Source of the DNA: a virus | Reading direction: 5' to 3' (one strand) | Length of the DNA: 44,295 bases | Virus genome (UHGV): UHGV-0091795 | Shown here: piece after piece, positions 4,132-39,592 of the stretch | How positions within the stretch are numbered: position 1 is the first letter of the stretch | Layout: each line of letters begins with the position of its first letter | Notes under the pieces: generated by a model | What the model was told of the DNA's origin: nothing | The model's database searches: none | The model's input: only the letters and a program-made list of their open reading frames with translations | Program-made: the position numbers and the translations under genes

Positions 4132-4733
4132 TGGATAACGCTGTATTAAATAGCGAGTTTATTGCTACAAAGGCGGGGAATATTACCGTCTATAACTATG
4201 ATGGCGAAACACGGGAATATATTTCCACATCAACTGAATATCTTGCCGTTGGTGTCGGTATCCCTGCATATTCCTGTTTAGATGCCCCTGGCACATACAA
4301 AGCTGGTTATGCAATCTGCCGATCTGTAGATTTTAACTCATGGGAATATGTGCCAGACCATCGCGGTGAAATCGTCTTTAGCACCGAAACAGGAGAATCA
4401 AAAGAAATCACAGTTCCGGGTGATTACCCTGATAATACAACCACTATCGCCCCTTTATCTCCATACGATAAATGGGATGGTGAGAAATGGGTGACCGATA
4501 CTGAGGCACAGCATAGCGCCGCAGTAGACGCGGCAGAAGCACAGCGCCAGTCACTGATTGATGCTGCAATGGCTTCCATCAGTCTGATTCAGCTGAAATT
4601 AAAGGCCGGACGGAAACTGACGCAGGCAGAAACAACCCAGCTTAACGCTGTGCTGGATTACATTGACGCGGTGACGGCAACAGATACCAGCACCGCGCCG
4701 AATGTCATCTGGCCTGAACTGCCGGAGGCGTAG
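4131..4733 (+). CDS. tail-fibre assembly protein (alternative copy, Tfa/U'-like)
   Basis: 200-aa ORF immediately after the alternative fibre segment; its 3' end overlaps the convergent minus-strand tfa gene, as in Mu G-segment and e14 P-segment layouts. Confidence 0.65.
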   Translation: MDNAVLNSEFIATKAGNITVYNYDGETREYISTSTEYLAVGVGIPAYSCLDAPGTYKAGYAICRSVDFNSWEYVPDHRGEIVFSTETGESKEITVPGDYPDNTTTIAPLSPYDKWDGEKWVTDTEAQHSAAVDAAEAQRQSLIDAAMASISLIQLKLKAGRKLTQAETTQLNAVLDYIDAVTATDTSTAPNVIWPELPEA

Positions 4734-5166
4734 GCCATTCAATATCTGGAGCACTGGAGGGATCAACCAGCTCCAGTGCGTCCAGATAATCCAGCCACAA
4801 ATTATATTGTGCCAGTTCCTCACCTTTCAGACGACCGATAGCTGCTTTACCAGGCCATTGCTTACCGTTCATGTATTCGTTGGCATGGTCAATTCTCGAC
4901 TTTTTCTCTGAGTCAGCCGCAGCAAGTTGTTCTTTATGCGTAGGTGACGGAAGATCTACCCAGCAAGGCAACCCATCATCACCAATGCCACGCATTTTAC
5001 CCTCAGGAGCGTTTCCCATGAAAACCAGTGCATCTTCAGCATTTATATTGATGCCGTCTGACGGCCATGTGCCAGCAGTTAAATAATCATATTTCAGTGC
5101 CACAAGATAAAAAGCATTTTCCGTCGGGCTGAATACATAGTCGACCATTAATATCCTACTCCCCAT
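4705..5166 (-). CDS. tail-fibre assembly protein (Tfa/U-like)
   Basis: 153-aa ORF directly downstream of the tail-fibre gene; C-terminal region resembles the plus-strand copy ([20 protein letters not shown] versus [23 protein letters not shown]). Confidence 0.65.
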
Positions 5167-5792
5167 ACTGCCACTGTTGAATTAGATTTCGTGTATGCGC
5201 AAGCGGCTTTGAATTTGACCCGGTCAACAATCGCTGCGCTAACAAAAGGGGCTCCATTAGTCGCGTAGATCACAGAATTGACCAGCGAAGGATTGATGGA
5301 AAGGCAAGCATTAGGAAAGGCAACCGGCCATGAGTCATCAACAACGACCATATTACCGTCGGTAGATTGCGGCACTGATAGCGTCTTCCACTGAAGCAAT
5401 GCTGTTCGTTGTACTCCACCAATTAATACTGGAATAGTGATGTTACCTGCACTGCTGGCTAATGCTGTCGCAGCAGGCATTTTCGCTGCTTCTCCCAAAC
5501 CAAGGTTTTCGAGAGCCGTTTTCACCGTGCCATCCGATTTGATATCGCCAAACGGATTCTTGCGGCTTAACAGCAGCGCACGAAGCGCGGTAAGCAGCTG
5601 GTCATGCCGCCCCTTCTCCAGGCTGGCACCGGAGGCCTCCACCACGCTGCAAAGCTCCTCCTGCAACATGTCAAAGTAGTCATCATCCAGATCGGTGGCA
5701 GGTGTGCCGGTCTGGGGGTTACCACGGGTAAAACCGTTCTTACCCGCGCCGAACTTATCCTTCTGCGCGGTTTTCGTGTCTATACGATGCAT
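5148..5792 (-). CDS. tail-fibre protein (constant N-terminus + currently expressed variable C-terminus)
   Basis: 214-aa ORF following the baseplate genes; the crossover site lies inside the gene at about codon 95 ([10 protein letters not shown]). Confidence 0.65.
5489..5508. repeat. hix/gix-like inversion crossover site (inside the tail-fibre gene)
   Basis: cttctcccaaaccaaggttt contains the palindromic core aaaccaaggtttt resembling Hin/Gin recombination sites; inverted copy of 3624-3643. Confidence 0.6.
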
Positions 5793-5795
5793 GGA

Positions 5796-6380
5796 TTACT
5801 CCGGATATTTAAAAATTATGTAGGTATGCGACGGGCAGAGTTTGTTAAGCACACACTCGACAACGGTGTCGCCCCAGATACGCAGTGCGGAATCACAGGG
5901 ATCGCCACATGTCATCCAGGTGGTGTTGGTGTCGGCTGGCATGTTGATCTGCCAGTAATACCGCCATTCCGGCGCATTCACCGCGTCAGTACAGGCCGAT
6001 GAGCAGGTGAACGTGCTTTTGTCGTATCGCGTGATGGTGGCATCTGGTCTGCCCAGGGCAGCAAGCTGTGCAAGATAAAAATCCTCGTTGATGCCGCCCG
6101 CCAGGTTAACCTTCGCATCCAGCCGTTGCTGACGCTGGCGAAGGGTCTGCGTTACCGCCGGAATACATTCATCCGGCAGACCGCACAGACGCTCCCAGCG
6201 GTTTATCAGTTCAGTGGTGGTGCGCGGATCCAGCTCCCGCATCAGGGCATCCGCACGCTGATGAACGCGGGTTAATGACGGTGCTGCACCGGCAATCGCC
6301 GGATCGCTGGCTGACCACGCCGGACCAGGGGGCAACAGTGCCGACAACAGACGGATGTAATCATCGTTTGTCACGTCCAT
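5796..6380 (-). CDS. phage tail protein (Mu gp48-like, DUF2313/YmfQ-like)
   Basis: 194-aa ORF between the baseplate J-like gene and the tail fibre, in the Mu-like gene order. Confidence 0.5.
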
Positions 6381-35755: not shown

Positions 35756-36295
35756 TCATATTGCCCCCAGCATGGTGGTGACCATCGCCATCAGTGGACC
35801 AGCCAGATCCGGGTCCACACGAAACATCGACACAATGCCTTCACTCATCTCCTTCAGTTTCTGGTGGCGTGGTGCGTTGAGAATGACAGCCTGTTTTGCC
35901 TCACTGAGTTCCTTTTCCATTTCAGCCAGCCGAGCCATGAAGCTATCCTGCTCAACCAGGTGGCCGCGATATTCCAGCGGTAGTACCGCCAGAATTGCCG
36001 GGGTCAGTTCACGCACGTTATTTCGGTATTTTTCAGAATCGAATTTGTTATCGAGGAAGCGGAACAGCTTCTGGCGTGCACGGCTGACATCATCAGGGAA
36101 ATCGATGGTGCCGCCGCCCTGCTCCCGATACTCATTCACAATGAGTGCGGCAACAACATCCTGATTATCTGCAGCCGACCAGGCGCGGACGGCATCACGG
36201 ATTTTTTCGTGGCCTGGCGCCTGTTTTGTTTGAGAACGATTTATCACCGCAGTCGGGCTAAATCCGCTAGTCTGTTGGTATGTAAGTGGTTGCAT
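35756..36295 (-). CDS. YdaT-like protein in the cII position
   Basis: 179-aa ORF immediately downstream of cro; the segment LTPAILAVLPLEYRGHL resembles Rac prophage YdaT. Confidence 0.45.
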   Translation of the reverse strand: MQPLTYQQTSGFSPTAVINRSQTKQAPGHEKIRDAVRAWSAADNQDVVAALIVNEYREQGGGTIDFPDDVSRARQKLFRFLDNKFDSEKYRNNVRELTPAILAVLPLEYRGHLVEQDSFMARLAEMEKELSEAKQAVILNAPRHQKLKEMSEGIVSMFRVDPDLAGPLMAMVTTMLGAI

Positions 36296-36325: not shown

Positions 36326-36559
36326 TTAGGCGGCAGAATTACTCGCGTTAAACAATGGTGCGAGGTCGGGACGAATATCTGCTGGTTTAATCTTTCCACC
36401 AGTGGCTGAGACAATTTTCATTACATAGCGGGCATCAATTCCGCCACCGTGTAGCCAACGCCAAACAGTGGGTTGGGCTACACCGCATAGATCTGCCAGT
36501 CGTTTTTGACTACCTGTAATACTGATTGCGAGTTGAATGGTCTGATTTGTCATCATCAA
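36326..36559 (-). CDS. cro: Cro-like HTH repressor
   Basis: 77-aa ORF with HTH (QKRLADLCGVAQPTVWRWLHG), divergent from cI, with an RBS-like aggaa upstream. Confidence 0.7.
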   Translation of the reverse strand: MMMTNQTIQLAISITGSQKRLADLCGVAQPTVWRWLHGGGIDARYVMKIVSATGGKIKPADIRPDLAPLFNASNSAA

Positions 36560-36584: not shown

Positions 36585-36613
36585 ATAATAGCAATGCGTA
36601 TTAAACCAAGCAA
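36585..36613 (-). promoter_or_regulatory. pR-like promoter for cro
   Basis: On the minus strand: -35 TTGCTT, 17-nt spacer, -10 TATTAT, about 25 nt upstream of the cro ATG; overlaps ATAGCAAT-type motifs. Confidence 0.5.
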
Positions 36614-36663: not shown

Positions 36664-37356
36664 ATGAAAAAAGAAACTCTTGCTGATCGCTTAAACCTAG
36701 CGATGGAACAATCTGGAATGTCTCAAGGCGCTCTTGCAAAGGCGTCTGGCGTAGCTCAACCCACAATCTGGAGACTGACAAGCGGCAACGCGCGCGGCTC
36801 AACAAAAATTGTTGAAATAGCTAATGCATTGGGTGTTCGAACAGAGTGGCTTTCATCAGGCATAGGCCCGATGAGAAATGACGGTCAACAATCAGGAAAG
36901 CCTGCTGTCAACCATTCCAAATACTTCAAGATTGACGTTCTTGATATAGAAGTCAGTGCTGGGCCGGGTGTCATCAACCGTGAGTTTGTAGAAGTCCTAC
37001 GCTCGGTTGAGTACTCGTTTGACGATGCTCGTCACATGTTCGATGGCAGGAAGGCAGAAAATATCCGCATCATTAACGTACGCGGTGACAGCATGTCAGG
37101 AACGATCGAACCAGGTGATCTGCTGTTCGTTGATATCACTGTTAAATCTTTCGACGGTGATGGTATCTATGCGTTTCTGTACGACGACACTGCCCATGTA
37201 AAGCGCCTGCAAATGATGAAGGATAAGCTGCTGGTTATCTCTGATAACAAGAGCTACTCACCGTGGGATCCGATCGAGAAAGACGAGATGAACCGAGTGT
37301 TCATCTTTGGGAAAGTTATTGGGAGTATGCCTCAGACATATAGGAAGCATGGTTAA
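36664..37356 (+). CDS. cI: CI-like repressor (HTH + S24 LexA-like autopeptidase domain)
   Basis: N-terminal HTH (MSQGALAKASGVAQPTIWRL) and C-terminal S24 motifs (VRGDSMSGTIEPGDLLFVD, HVKRL Ser/Lys dyad). Confidence 0.8.
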   Translation: MKKETLADRLNLAMEQSGMSQGALAKASGVAQPTIWRLTSGNARGSTKIVEIANALGVRTEWLSSGIGPMRNDGQQSGKPAVNHSKYFKIDVLDIEVSAGPGVINREFVEVLRSVEYSFDDARHMFDGRKAENIRIINVRGDSMSGTIEPGDLLFVDITVKSFDGDGIYAFLYDDTAHVKRLQMMKDKLLVISDNKSYSPWDPIEKDEMNRVFIFGKVIGSMPQTYRKHG

Positions 37357-37478
37357 AGTGAGGCTAAAAAACAGTTACAGCAATAGGCCTGTTGTTTTTC
37401 TTTAAACACGCAGTGTTAAACCGCTCTTTGAGATGCGGAGTAATGAGATGGAAGACTTGAATCACATAAGGGTTAGTG

Positions 37479-38228
37479 ATGGAGTGCGTAGCGAGCAGCA
37501 ATAGTGCAATACCTAATGTCGTTGAGGTAATACGTCGCATCAATGAAGGTTCCACTCAGCCATTTCTTTGCAAATGTGATGATGGGCAGTTGTATGTTTT
37601 GAAGTCAAAACCATCAATGCCCCCGAAAAATCTCTTAGCTGAGTTCATTTCGGCGTGTTTGGCTAATGATATCGGCCTTCCTTTACCTGACTTTAAAATC
37701 GTATTTGTGCCAGAGGAACTTATAGAGTACTCACCTGATCTGCAGCAACAAATTTGTACAGGATATGCCTTTGCTTCATTGTTCATTGACGGTGCAATAG
37801 CGTTAACGTTTACGCAGTCAAGAAACGAAACGATCATCCCAGTCGAACAGCAAAAATTAATCTATGTTTTTGATAAATGGATATTAAATGCAGACAGAAC
37901 GCTTACTGACAAAGGTGGAAACGTTAACATCCTTTATGACATCAGTAACGATAAGTATTATCTGATTGACCATAATCTCTCATTTGATCAGAATGCTGGA
38001 CCTGAAGATTTTTCTGTGCACGTGTACGGCCCTGGTAACCGCAAATGGCAATATGATTTAGTGGATCGCGTAGAGTACCGCCAGAGGGTCGTTAACAGTT
38101 TACACAAGCTTCCTGCTATCCTTGACGAAATTCCAGAAGAGTGGATAGTAGATGAGGAGTTTTTACCTTTTGTCTGCACTACGCTAGACAAAGGTGATTG
38201 TGATGAATTTTGGAGCGCAATAGAATGA
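37479..38228 (+). CDS. kinase-like protein (tentative HipA/PI3K-like catalytic core), first gene of the immunity-region cassette
   Basis: 249-aa ORF directly downstream of cI on the same strand; contains YYLIDHNLSFD, reminiscent of catalytic loops of HipA/PI3K-like atypical kinases. Family assignment is tentative. Confidence 0.45.
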   Translation: MECVASSNSAIPNVVEVIRRINEGSTQPFLCKCDDGQLYVLKSKPSMPPKNLLAEFISACLANDIGLPLPDFKIVFVPEELIEYSPDLQQQICTGYAFASLFIDGAIALTFTQSRNETIIPVEQQKLIYVFDKWILNADRTLTDKGGNVNILYDISNDKYYLIDHNLSFDQNAGPEDFSVHVYGPGNRKWQYDLVDRVEYRQRVVNSLHKLPAILDEIPEEWIVDEEFLPFVCTTLDKGDCDEFWSAIE

Positions 38229-39052
38229 CAACTCCATGCCTATATAGCATCGTTCGCTATGCGCCTTATGCGGAGACTGAAGAGTTCGCAAACATAGGCG
38301 TACTTCTGTGCGCGCCAAAAGAAAATTACTTTGATTTCCAGCTCACAAAGCGAAATGACTCTCGTGTAAAGAATTTTTTCCATGATGATTGTATTTTCCC
38401 TGTAGCAAAAGACTCAATACAAAGAGAACTACAGTTCGCAAAAATGCATGCGACCCAGATTGTTGGACATCAACAACTTGCACAATTCTTCAGATATTTT
38501 ACAAACAAAAAAGAATCAATTTTTCAGTTCAGTTCTACGAGAGTGATTCTCAGCGAAAACCCAAAAGAAGAGCTGGCCCGCATTTACAATAAATATGTAA
38601 ACCACTCTGACTACACAAAAGAGCGCCGTGAAGATGTTCTAGCCAGAGAGCTAAAACGAAGTATCGATAGAATAGATGGATTGAAGAACGTCTTCAAACA
38701 AGCAACCATTGATGGGTATTTCGCAAAGTTCTCAATGCCATTGGTCGCCAAGAAGCATGACAGGATCCAATGTGCCATCAAACCTCTGGCATTCACTCAA
38801 GCTGAACCAGGAAAAATGATGGAGCATAGTGATACTTGGGTGATGAGAATAACTCGAGCAGCAGAAGAAAACCTGCTTTCACTTGATGACATTTTATTCA
38901 CAATTGAAACTCCTGAATCACCAAACTCAGGCCAAAGCAAAGTTATTGACATCATAAAGAGAACTATGGATGCTAAGAAAATAAATCATATACCTGCATC
39001 CAACCACAAAGAAACTATTGATTTTGCAAAAAAAATACTTCCCCAAGTTTAA
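38225..39052 (+). CDS. DUF3037-like protein, second gene of the immunity-region cassette
   Basis: ATG overlaps the upstream stop (ATGA). N-terminus LYSIVRYAPYAETEEFANIGVLL fits the DUF3037-type pattern (Y.I.RY.P....EEF.N.GV.L). Confidence 0.55.
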   Translation: MTTPCLYSIVRYAPYAETEEFANIGVLLCAPKENYFDFQLTKRNDSRVKNFFHDDCIFPVAKDSIQRELQFAKMHATQIVGHQQLAQFFRYFTNKKESIFQFSSTRVILSENPKEELARIYNKYVNHSDYTKERREDVLARELKRSIDRIDGLKNVFKQATIDGYFAKFSMPLVAKKHDRIQCAIKPLAFTQAEPGKMMEHSDTWVMRITRAAEENLLSLDDILFTIETPESPNSGQSKVIDIIKRTMDAKKINHIPASNHKETIDFAKKILPQV

Positions 39053-39087
39053 AATTTATTTTTGTATGTGATATTCCTTATTAATAA

Positions 39088-39114
39088 CCCGGCCACCGTG
39101 CCGGGTTTTCTTTT
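39088..39114 (+). terminator. intrinsic terminator ending the cI-cassette transcript
   Basis: cccggc-caccgt-gccggg hairpin followed by TTTTCTTTT, 36 bp after the DUF3037-like stop. Confidence 0.75.
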
Positions 39115-39254
39115 GCCTCCCCTCATCACACAAACCGCTCAAAAAACCACCACAACCCCGCTTCAGTTATCGCTATGCGATGCAAGTCACAAAATTAATT
39201 CTTTTTGCTATCAAACATTTAATATCAAAACACATCTAACGATAGCAATAAGTA

Positions 39255-39283
39255 TTGATATCACCAATAGCAATAGCTATTAT
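39255..39283 (+). promoter_or_regulatory. pL-like early-left promoter with overlapping operator motifs
   Basis: -35 TTGATA, 17-nt spacer, -10 TATTAT; ATAGCAAT motifs (39242-39249, 39266-39273) match motifs in the cI-cro intergenic region. Confidence 0.55.
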
Positions 39284-39388
39284 CACCATATCGCAACAAC
39301 ACAACGATACGGCAACCACCTGATTCACCGTTGCGATGACCGCTTAGATCCGCAGCTTGATTTCAGCAGGCTCCGGGGAGTGCGAGGG

Positions 39389-39592
39389 GTGAAACGGACG
39401 CGTGAACGTCGGTGTGACCAGCTGAAATCAACTCAACACTTCATACCTCAGTTGCTTCAACGAGGCGACTTAGTTATGACAACCGGCGGCCATCCACCGC
39501 CAAATACTGCGCAACCCCTTATTTGTTCAGCAGCCCAGCTTACGGGCAGGAGTTTTTATGGTTCATCAACATTACGGAACGCAGACCGTTAA
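39389..39592 (+). CDS. candidate N-like antiterminator (arginine-rich N-terminus, GTG start)
   Basis: 67-aa frame beginning GTG with a GGGGAG RBS 8 nt upstream; N-terminus MKRTRERRCDQLK resembles the arginine-rich motif of lambdoid N proteins. Highly tentative. Confidence 0.25.
   Translation: MKRTRERRCDQLKSTQHFIPQLLQRGDLVMTTGGHPPPNTAQPLICSAAQLTGRSFYGSSTLRNADR

Follow-up and report, generated by a model that had tools for sequence, protein, structure and literature searches.

A gene pair at the rexAB site of a lambdoid prophage very probably encodes the anti-phage system HipAD

The window analyzed in this study is the whole stretch of 44,295 nucleotides of the virus genome UHGV-0091795, in which two overlapping genes, hipA and hipD, follow a cI-type repressor gene. 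The results indicate that this pair is very probably the anti-phage system HipAD, also designated DS-6 and PDC-M66, and that it is cargo of a lambdoid prophage, located where lambda has rexAB. The proteins encoded by hipA and hipD were 100% identical, residue for residue, to the published proteins DS-6A (WP_000389051.1) and DS-6B (WP_000210934.1), respectively. The finding is thus correct but already known: the window contains a further copy of a system that has a name and has been validated by experiment, and no new biology arises from the pair itself, because the exact proteins have already been cloned, tested, and named. A first-pass annotation, made by reading the sequence alone, had nevertheless singled out a genuine defense system from the location of the genes and their coupling.

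DS-6 was described in the DefensePredictor paper (Science 2026, PMC13092281) as consisting of a HipA-related kinase, DS-6A, and a protein with DUF3037 and DUF1829, DS-6B, and the accession numbers and sequences are given in its supplementary tables. The authors of that paper found the system independently, and the name HipAD was taken from Brenes & Laub 2025, Cell Host Microbe 33:1004 (PMC13092281). On phage Bas1, the cloned wild-type pair showed -log10 efficiency-of-plating (EOP) values of 3.9 and 5.18, corresponding to a decrease in plating of up to about 10^5-fold (PMC13092281). With D139A, a mutant of the kinase, the value was 0.88, indicating that protection was lost (PMC13092281). The mutated residue, D139, which that work predicted to be catalytic, is present in the HipA protein of the window. 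The first-pass annotation had proposed a prophage-encoded exclusion or abortive-infection module, and this proposal is supported by the D139-dependent protection against Bas1 that was published for the identical proteins. Its remark that no phenotype was known for such a pair is out of date, since DS-6/HipAD has been tested on Bas1 and the pair of Retron-Sda1 has also been tested.

The latter is a homologous pair of HipA-like and DUF3037 genes in the Retron-Sda1 operon, which was identified as PDC-M66 and defends on its own; deletion of the kinase gene abolished defense, and deletion of the DUF3037 gene was toxic (PLoS Biol 2025, PMC12548924). The Retron-Sda1 and window proteins were set side by side by published description and not by sequence. 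The two pairs have in common the combination of a kinase with a DUF3037 protein, and the Retron-Sda1 pair is a standalone defense system in which the kinase is needed for defense and the DUF3037 protein for viability, but it occurs in another host and lies beside a retron reverse transcriptase gene and a noncoding RNA. The C-terminal part of its DUF3037 protein is described as similar to a retron DNA-binding protein (PMC12548924).

The identification was also supported at the nucleotide and family levels. By megablast against phage genomes, PhiR5_1 (PV340545.1) matched with 99.4% identity over the region. The depositor of this genome annotated the successive genes as cI, HipA toxin, and HipD antitoxin, and its two proteins match those of the window in every residue. 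PADLOC assigned the pair to the two-gene candidate defense system PDC-M66, with HipA matching PDC-M66A (E = 6e-15) and HipD matching PDC-M66B (E = 3.8e-16). The window pair consists of a HipA_2 kinase gene, with D139 encoded, and a coupled downstream DUF3037 gene, as in HipAD; the order of the two genes agrees with that in HipAD/DS-6 and their prophage position with that in PhiR5_1, and no difference of substance was found.

The family assignments of both proteins were unambiguous. HipA matched Pfam HipA_2 (PF20613) over its full length with an E-value of 9.7e-77, and residues 7–125 of HipD matched DUF3037 (PF11236) with an E-value of 7.6e-24; chance cannot explain these scores. The first-pass annotation had described the first gene product as a HipA/PI3K-like kinase and the second as having a DUF3037-type N-terminus, and both descriptions agree with these matches. 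The profile searches that it had proposed thus recovered DUF3037, and HipA_2 as the only HipA-family match, but Pfam PI3_PI4_kinase gave no match to HipA at E-values up to 1, so that the resemblance to PI3/PI4 kinases is at the fold level only. In PHROGs, HipA and HipD fall in phrog_3162 and phrog_5137, respectively, both of which are families of unknown function. Scanning both proteins against NCBIfam yielded nothing meaningful, and a sequence search of solved structures gave no significant match for HipA, HipD, or the kinase profile.

The kinase fold was seen in a structural model. An AlphaFold model of HipA, built with 31 homologues, had a mean predicted local distance difference test score (pLDDT) of 89.5 and a predicted template modeling score (pTM) of 0.88. 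Foldseek matched this model to PI4KII-alpha with an E-value of 4e-7 and template modeling (TM) scores of 0.62–0.65, and further to the Helicobacter pylori kinase CtkA and to HipA and HipT (about 1e-3). As modeled, the hipA product is a compact kinase of the HipA/PI3-4K type. Residues invariant in the 31 homologues include K42, E55, N137, D139, R140, N148, N150, D164, H165, and N166. Judged by their positions, K42 and E55 would fit the pair of an ATP-binding Lys and a helix-C Glu, and N137-x-D139-R140...N148/N150 would fit the catalytic loop N-x-D-R...N, in which D139 (N-A-D-R) is most likely the catalytic Asp and is the predicted catalytic base. The first-pass annotation had pointed to a D-H-N stretch as reminiscent of a kinase catalytic loop. 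This stretch, D164-H165-N166 (I-D-H-N), is indeed invariant, but because it is placed after the N137-x-D139-R140...N148/N150 loop, it is most likely a DFG-type metal-binding motif and not the catalytic loop.

The window pair shares with HipBA and HipBST the HipA/PI3-4K-type fold and the principle of a toxin kinase neutralized by a partner protein. HipA of the window consists of 249 amino acid residues, however, compared with 440 in Escherichia coli HipA, and HipA_2 was its only Pfam match at E-values up to 1. Alignment of the two by hhalign gave a probability of 16% over 25 columns, and the N-terminal and HipA_C domains that make up a canonical HipBA kinase of about 440 residues were not found in it. 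Nor is it preceded by a gene for a HipB-type helix-turn-helix (HTH) antitoxin: the upstream gene is cI, and the partner gene lies downstream and encodes a DUF3037 protein with no match to an HTH family.

HipD has a C-terminal domain at about residues 130–275, and this half of the protein appears to be folded like a restriction endonuclease while lacking the acidic residues that are usual there. Its structural matches include the PD-(D/E)xK nucleases CdiA-CT, Can2, NucS, Mus81, and NucC. A Foldseek search returned the same kinds of proteins, the best only at an E-value of 0.07, and the likeness is at the fold level only. In 40 HipD homologues, E136, P172, I185, K186, P187, and W205 were invariant, and position 200 was always Glu or Asp. 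The canonical acidic positions read P172-L/F173 and A184-I185-K186 in 35–40 of the 40 homologues. When the nuclease motif was placed by secondary-structure order, not by residue-level superposition, the catalytic acidic residues of D...(D/E)xK were lacking in HipD. No Pfam nuclease family gave a match. A standard nuclease activity of the C-terminal domain is therefore improbable. The domain retains E136, K186, and Glu or Asp at position 200, and the Asp of strand beta-2 is missing; the K-X13-E spacing recalls that of NgoMIV/Cfr10I-type enzymes.

The C-terminal domain could bind DNA. This would agree with a published hint from AlphaFold3, in which the interface pTM (ipTM) was 0.67 for DS-6B with DNA and 0.76–0.79 for DS-6A with DS-6B (PMC13092281). 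We tentatively propose that the C-terminal half of HipD is a disarmed nuclease-like sensor, which would release the HipA_2 kinase upon binding to DNA of the phage or to an intermediate of replication; the proposal is possible and should not be regarded as probable. If it is true, HipD and HipA form a DNA-sensing, kinase-firing immune switch, a mechanism that was not established in PMC13092281 or PMC12548924. The nuclease-like domain provides a concrete lead on how infection is sensed.

Two other assignments for HipD were considered and rejected. DUF1829 was reported for residues 163–260 of DS-6B by HHpred with a probability of 0.78 (PMC13092281), but no Pfam HMM match to DUF1829 was obtained in the C-terminal region of any of the 40 homologues at E-values up to 5. 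For a HipS-like role, in which DUF3037 would correspond to the N-terminal subdomain of HipA as HipS does in HipBST, alignment of the HipD profile with E. coli HipA by hhalign gave a probability of 0.2% and thus no support.

The positions of the two genes and of the surrounding elements are summarized in Table 1. The stop codon of hipA and the start codon of hipD share the sequence ATGA, as the first-pass annotation had noted and as the open reading frames and the junction sequence bear out, and the two genes are translationally coupled through this overlap. An in-frame GTG at 37,476, one codon 5′ of the ATG, is the mechanical start of the hipA open reading frame. The pair lies directly downstream of cI on the same strand, in accordance with the earlier reading, and the repressor is named cI in PhiR5_1. 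The terminator predicted at 39,088–39,114 is a real hairpin followed by a T run, but its coordinates were slightly off: the stem, 8 bp with 6 G-C pairs, spans 39,086–39,107 and is followed by TTCTTTTG. The pL-like promoter expected beyond it was also found, and kil, gam, bet, and exo come after this promoter.

Table 1. Positions of hipA, hipD, and neighboring elements in the window
Feature	Position	Strand	Description
hipA (gene 1)	37479-38228	+	ATG start; 249 aa; presumed toxin; HipA_2-family Ser/Thr-type kinase
hipD (gene 2)	38225-39052	+	275 aa; DUF3037 N-terminus; presumed antitoxin or sensor
cI-type repressor gene	36664-37356	+	Pfam Peptidase_S24 (1.3e-18) and HTH_3 (1.8e-06); named cI in PhiR5_1
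cro-like gene	36326-36559	-	Divergent from cI
Cargo-module leader	37357-37478	+	122-nt spacer; AAGGG ribosome-binding site 8 nt 5′ of hipA ATG
Intrinsic terminator	39086-39117	+	Right border of cargo slot; 8-bp stem, then T run
pL-like promoter	39255-39283	+	TTGATA-17-TATTAT; 10/12 matches; overlapped by operator-like ATAGCAA repeats

From the gene order, the terminator, and the pL-like site, the layout matches that of lambda, cI-rexA-rexB-tImm followed by pL, and the earlier placement of the pair in the rexAB slot is thus borne out. The pair has the same position and orientation as rexA and rexB, between cI and the immunity terminator and upstream of pL, and the terminator, which closes the cI-hipA-hipD unit, corresponds to tImm. 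In lambda as in the window, the cargo consists of two exclusion genes, and the transcript of the repressor gene can provide for their expression. The biochemistry differs, HipAD containing a kinase and lambda RexB being a membrane protein, and scans of HipA and HipD against Pfam, PHROGs, NCBIfam, and PADLOC detected no Rex family. A prophage-encoded kinase that excludes phages has a parallel in Stk of prophage 933W, which, according to work of Friedman and colleagues in 2011, reportedly excludes super-infecting phage by abortive infection. Stk is a eukaryote-like kinase that does not belong to HipA_2 and is not known to have a DUF3037 partner.

It is most likely that cI and hipAD share one transcript in the lysogen, started at the maintenance promoter, because the cassette is flanked by the cI stop codon and the immunity terminator and no other terminator separates it from cI. 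On the + strand of the cI-hipA interval, a scan found no terminator-like site. Promoter-like sites over the region were at the chance level (7 found and 6.2 expected from shuffles), and the 122-nt spacer between cI and hipA folded no better than shuffled sequence (z +0.79). That hipA has a promoter of its own, or that a terminator separates it from cI, was rejected based on the chance-level number of promoter sites and the ordinary fold of the spacer.

The same slot holds other genes in PhiR47_2 and PhiR68_2, related phages of the same collection as PhiR5_1. It contains GevT and GevA, annotated as toxin and antitoxin, in PhiR47_2 and two hypothetical genes (341 and 149 amino acid residues) in PhiR68_2. 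In alignments with these two phages, homology stopped exactly at the cI stop codon and resumed at the terminator hairpin, which delimits a cargo module at approximately 37,357–39,083. The G+C content of the hipAD cargo was 40%, compared with 49% for the whole window. Based on the sequence comparison, the cI stop codon and the immunity terminator enclose a cargo hotspot whose borders are sharp and base-exact. The leader at its left end is assigned to the cargo and not to the phage backbone, because phages that carry different genes there cease to be homologous at the cI stop codon. These borders define a portable module and a hotspot that can be mined in related prophages.

The cassette was present in 284 of 5,426 complete E. 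coli genomes, where it was always chromosomal and single-copy, with at least 99% identity in 282 of them. In RefSeq, the two proteins are named "HipA family kinase" and "DUF3037 domain-containing protein." Both of the E. coli copies that were inspected (2/2) had the cassette between the repressor gene and kil-gam-bet-exo. Full-length homologues of HipA and HipD were found in Enterobacterales, Pseudomonas, Idiomarina, and sphingomonads, and in Pseudomonas, Idiomarina, and Novosphingobium a HipA_2 gene is followed by a DUF3037 gene with the same 4-nt overlap.

Taken together with the published phenotypes, the preferred mechanism is that of a toxin-antitoxin-like, abortive system. HipD would keep the small HipA_2 kinase inactive within a complex, and an infection signal, possibly sensed via the C-terminal domain of HipD, which is nuclease-like and probably non-catalytic, would free the kinase. 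The freed kinase might then phosphorylate a host factor, by analogy with HipA and GltX and with HipT, which acts on TrpS; translation and growth would stop, and the infection would be aborted. The action of HipA on GltX is noted in PMC13092281. Several points weigh against this mechanism. Abortive infection is a hypothesis of the authors in PMC13092281, and that paper and PMC12548924 report no target of the kinase and no trigger from the phage. Between HipD and either HipB or the N-terminal region of HipA, there is no similarity in sequence. Finally, co-transcription with cI was deduced only from the missing terminator and the lack of a convincing promoter.

Alternatively, the kinase may act directly on a replication, transcription, or structural factor of the phage, so that immunity is direct and the cell is not killed. 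The loss of defense in the D139A mutant fits this explanation as well as the abortive one, and plating assays with Bas1 do not distinguish between the two. We consider direct immunity unlikely, however, since deletion of the DUF3037 gene in the homologous pair was toxic without any phage (PMC12548924), which implies that the kinase has a harmful target in the host, and the DefensePredictor authors also prefer a toxin-antitoxin, abortive model (PMC13092281).

The toxin-antitoxin-like behavior of the homologous pair, the tight coupling of hipA and hipD, and the nearly clonal state of the cassette over the 284 E. coli genomes would also be expected if the pair were mainly an addiction module that stabilizes the prophage in the chromosome, with phage defense as a side effect. 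This explanation is highly improbable, because the approximately 10^5-fold defense was obtained with the pair cloned on a plasmid and not in a prophage, homologues occur outside prophages too, and the slot holds exclusion systems in related phages, namely rexAB in lambda and GevT/GevA in PhiR47_2. Still less credible is that HipD is an effector nuclease acting via its C-terminal domain with the kinase as its mere regulator, given the replaced acidic positions, the poor Foldseek scores, and the lack of nuclease family matches described above, and given that loss of the DUF3037 protein in the homologous pair was toxic and not harmless.

Several further observations were made on the immunity region. 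ATAGCAA occurs at 39,242 and 39,267 around the pL-like site and at 36,588 and 36,613 in the cI-cro interval, with a spacing of 25 nt at both. The window contains nine copies, five of which are clustered at the two promoter regions (36,588, 36,613, 39,205 on the - strand, 39,242, and 39,267). These five copies are probably operator half-sites of this immunity type, and their pattern at both promoters fits oL/pL and oR. The putative oR and oL regions had no 10-mer in common and shared only the short ATAGCAA repeats.

Residues 82–230 of cI, comprising the linker and the S24 domain, were 100% identical to those of PhiR47_2 cI, whereas the N-terminal HTH domain diverged; the repressor itself is therefore mosaic. 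A difference was likewise seen in the oL operator region. Both differences suggest that it is the DNA-binding domain whose exchange changes the specificity of immunity.

In the interval from the pL-like promoter to kil (39,284–39,480), there is no N-like open reading frame but a leader of about 200 nt, with 94–98% conservation among 16 related phages. The fold predicted for it was not significantly more stable than that of shuffled sequences (z -1.46), and it had no Rfam match; an Rfam scan of the window detected no known RNA family. The leader might be an antitermination RNA of the HK022 type (put-like). On the other side of the region, the gene at 35,756–36,295 on the - strand, in the position of cII, carries conflicting labels, cII in PhiR5_1 and "toxin YdaT domain-containing protein" in RefSeq E. 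coli chromosomes.

In Novosphingobium sp. KA1 (CP021247.1), the distant pair at 4,264–5,849 immediately follows the terminase and portal genes of a prophage; a capsid-scaffold gene (Phage_GPO_N) adjoins it, and ordinary chromosomal genes are also found beside it. This copy resembles prophage-associated cargo, and prophages of more than one kind may therefore carry the pair.
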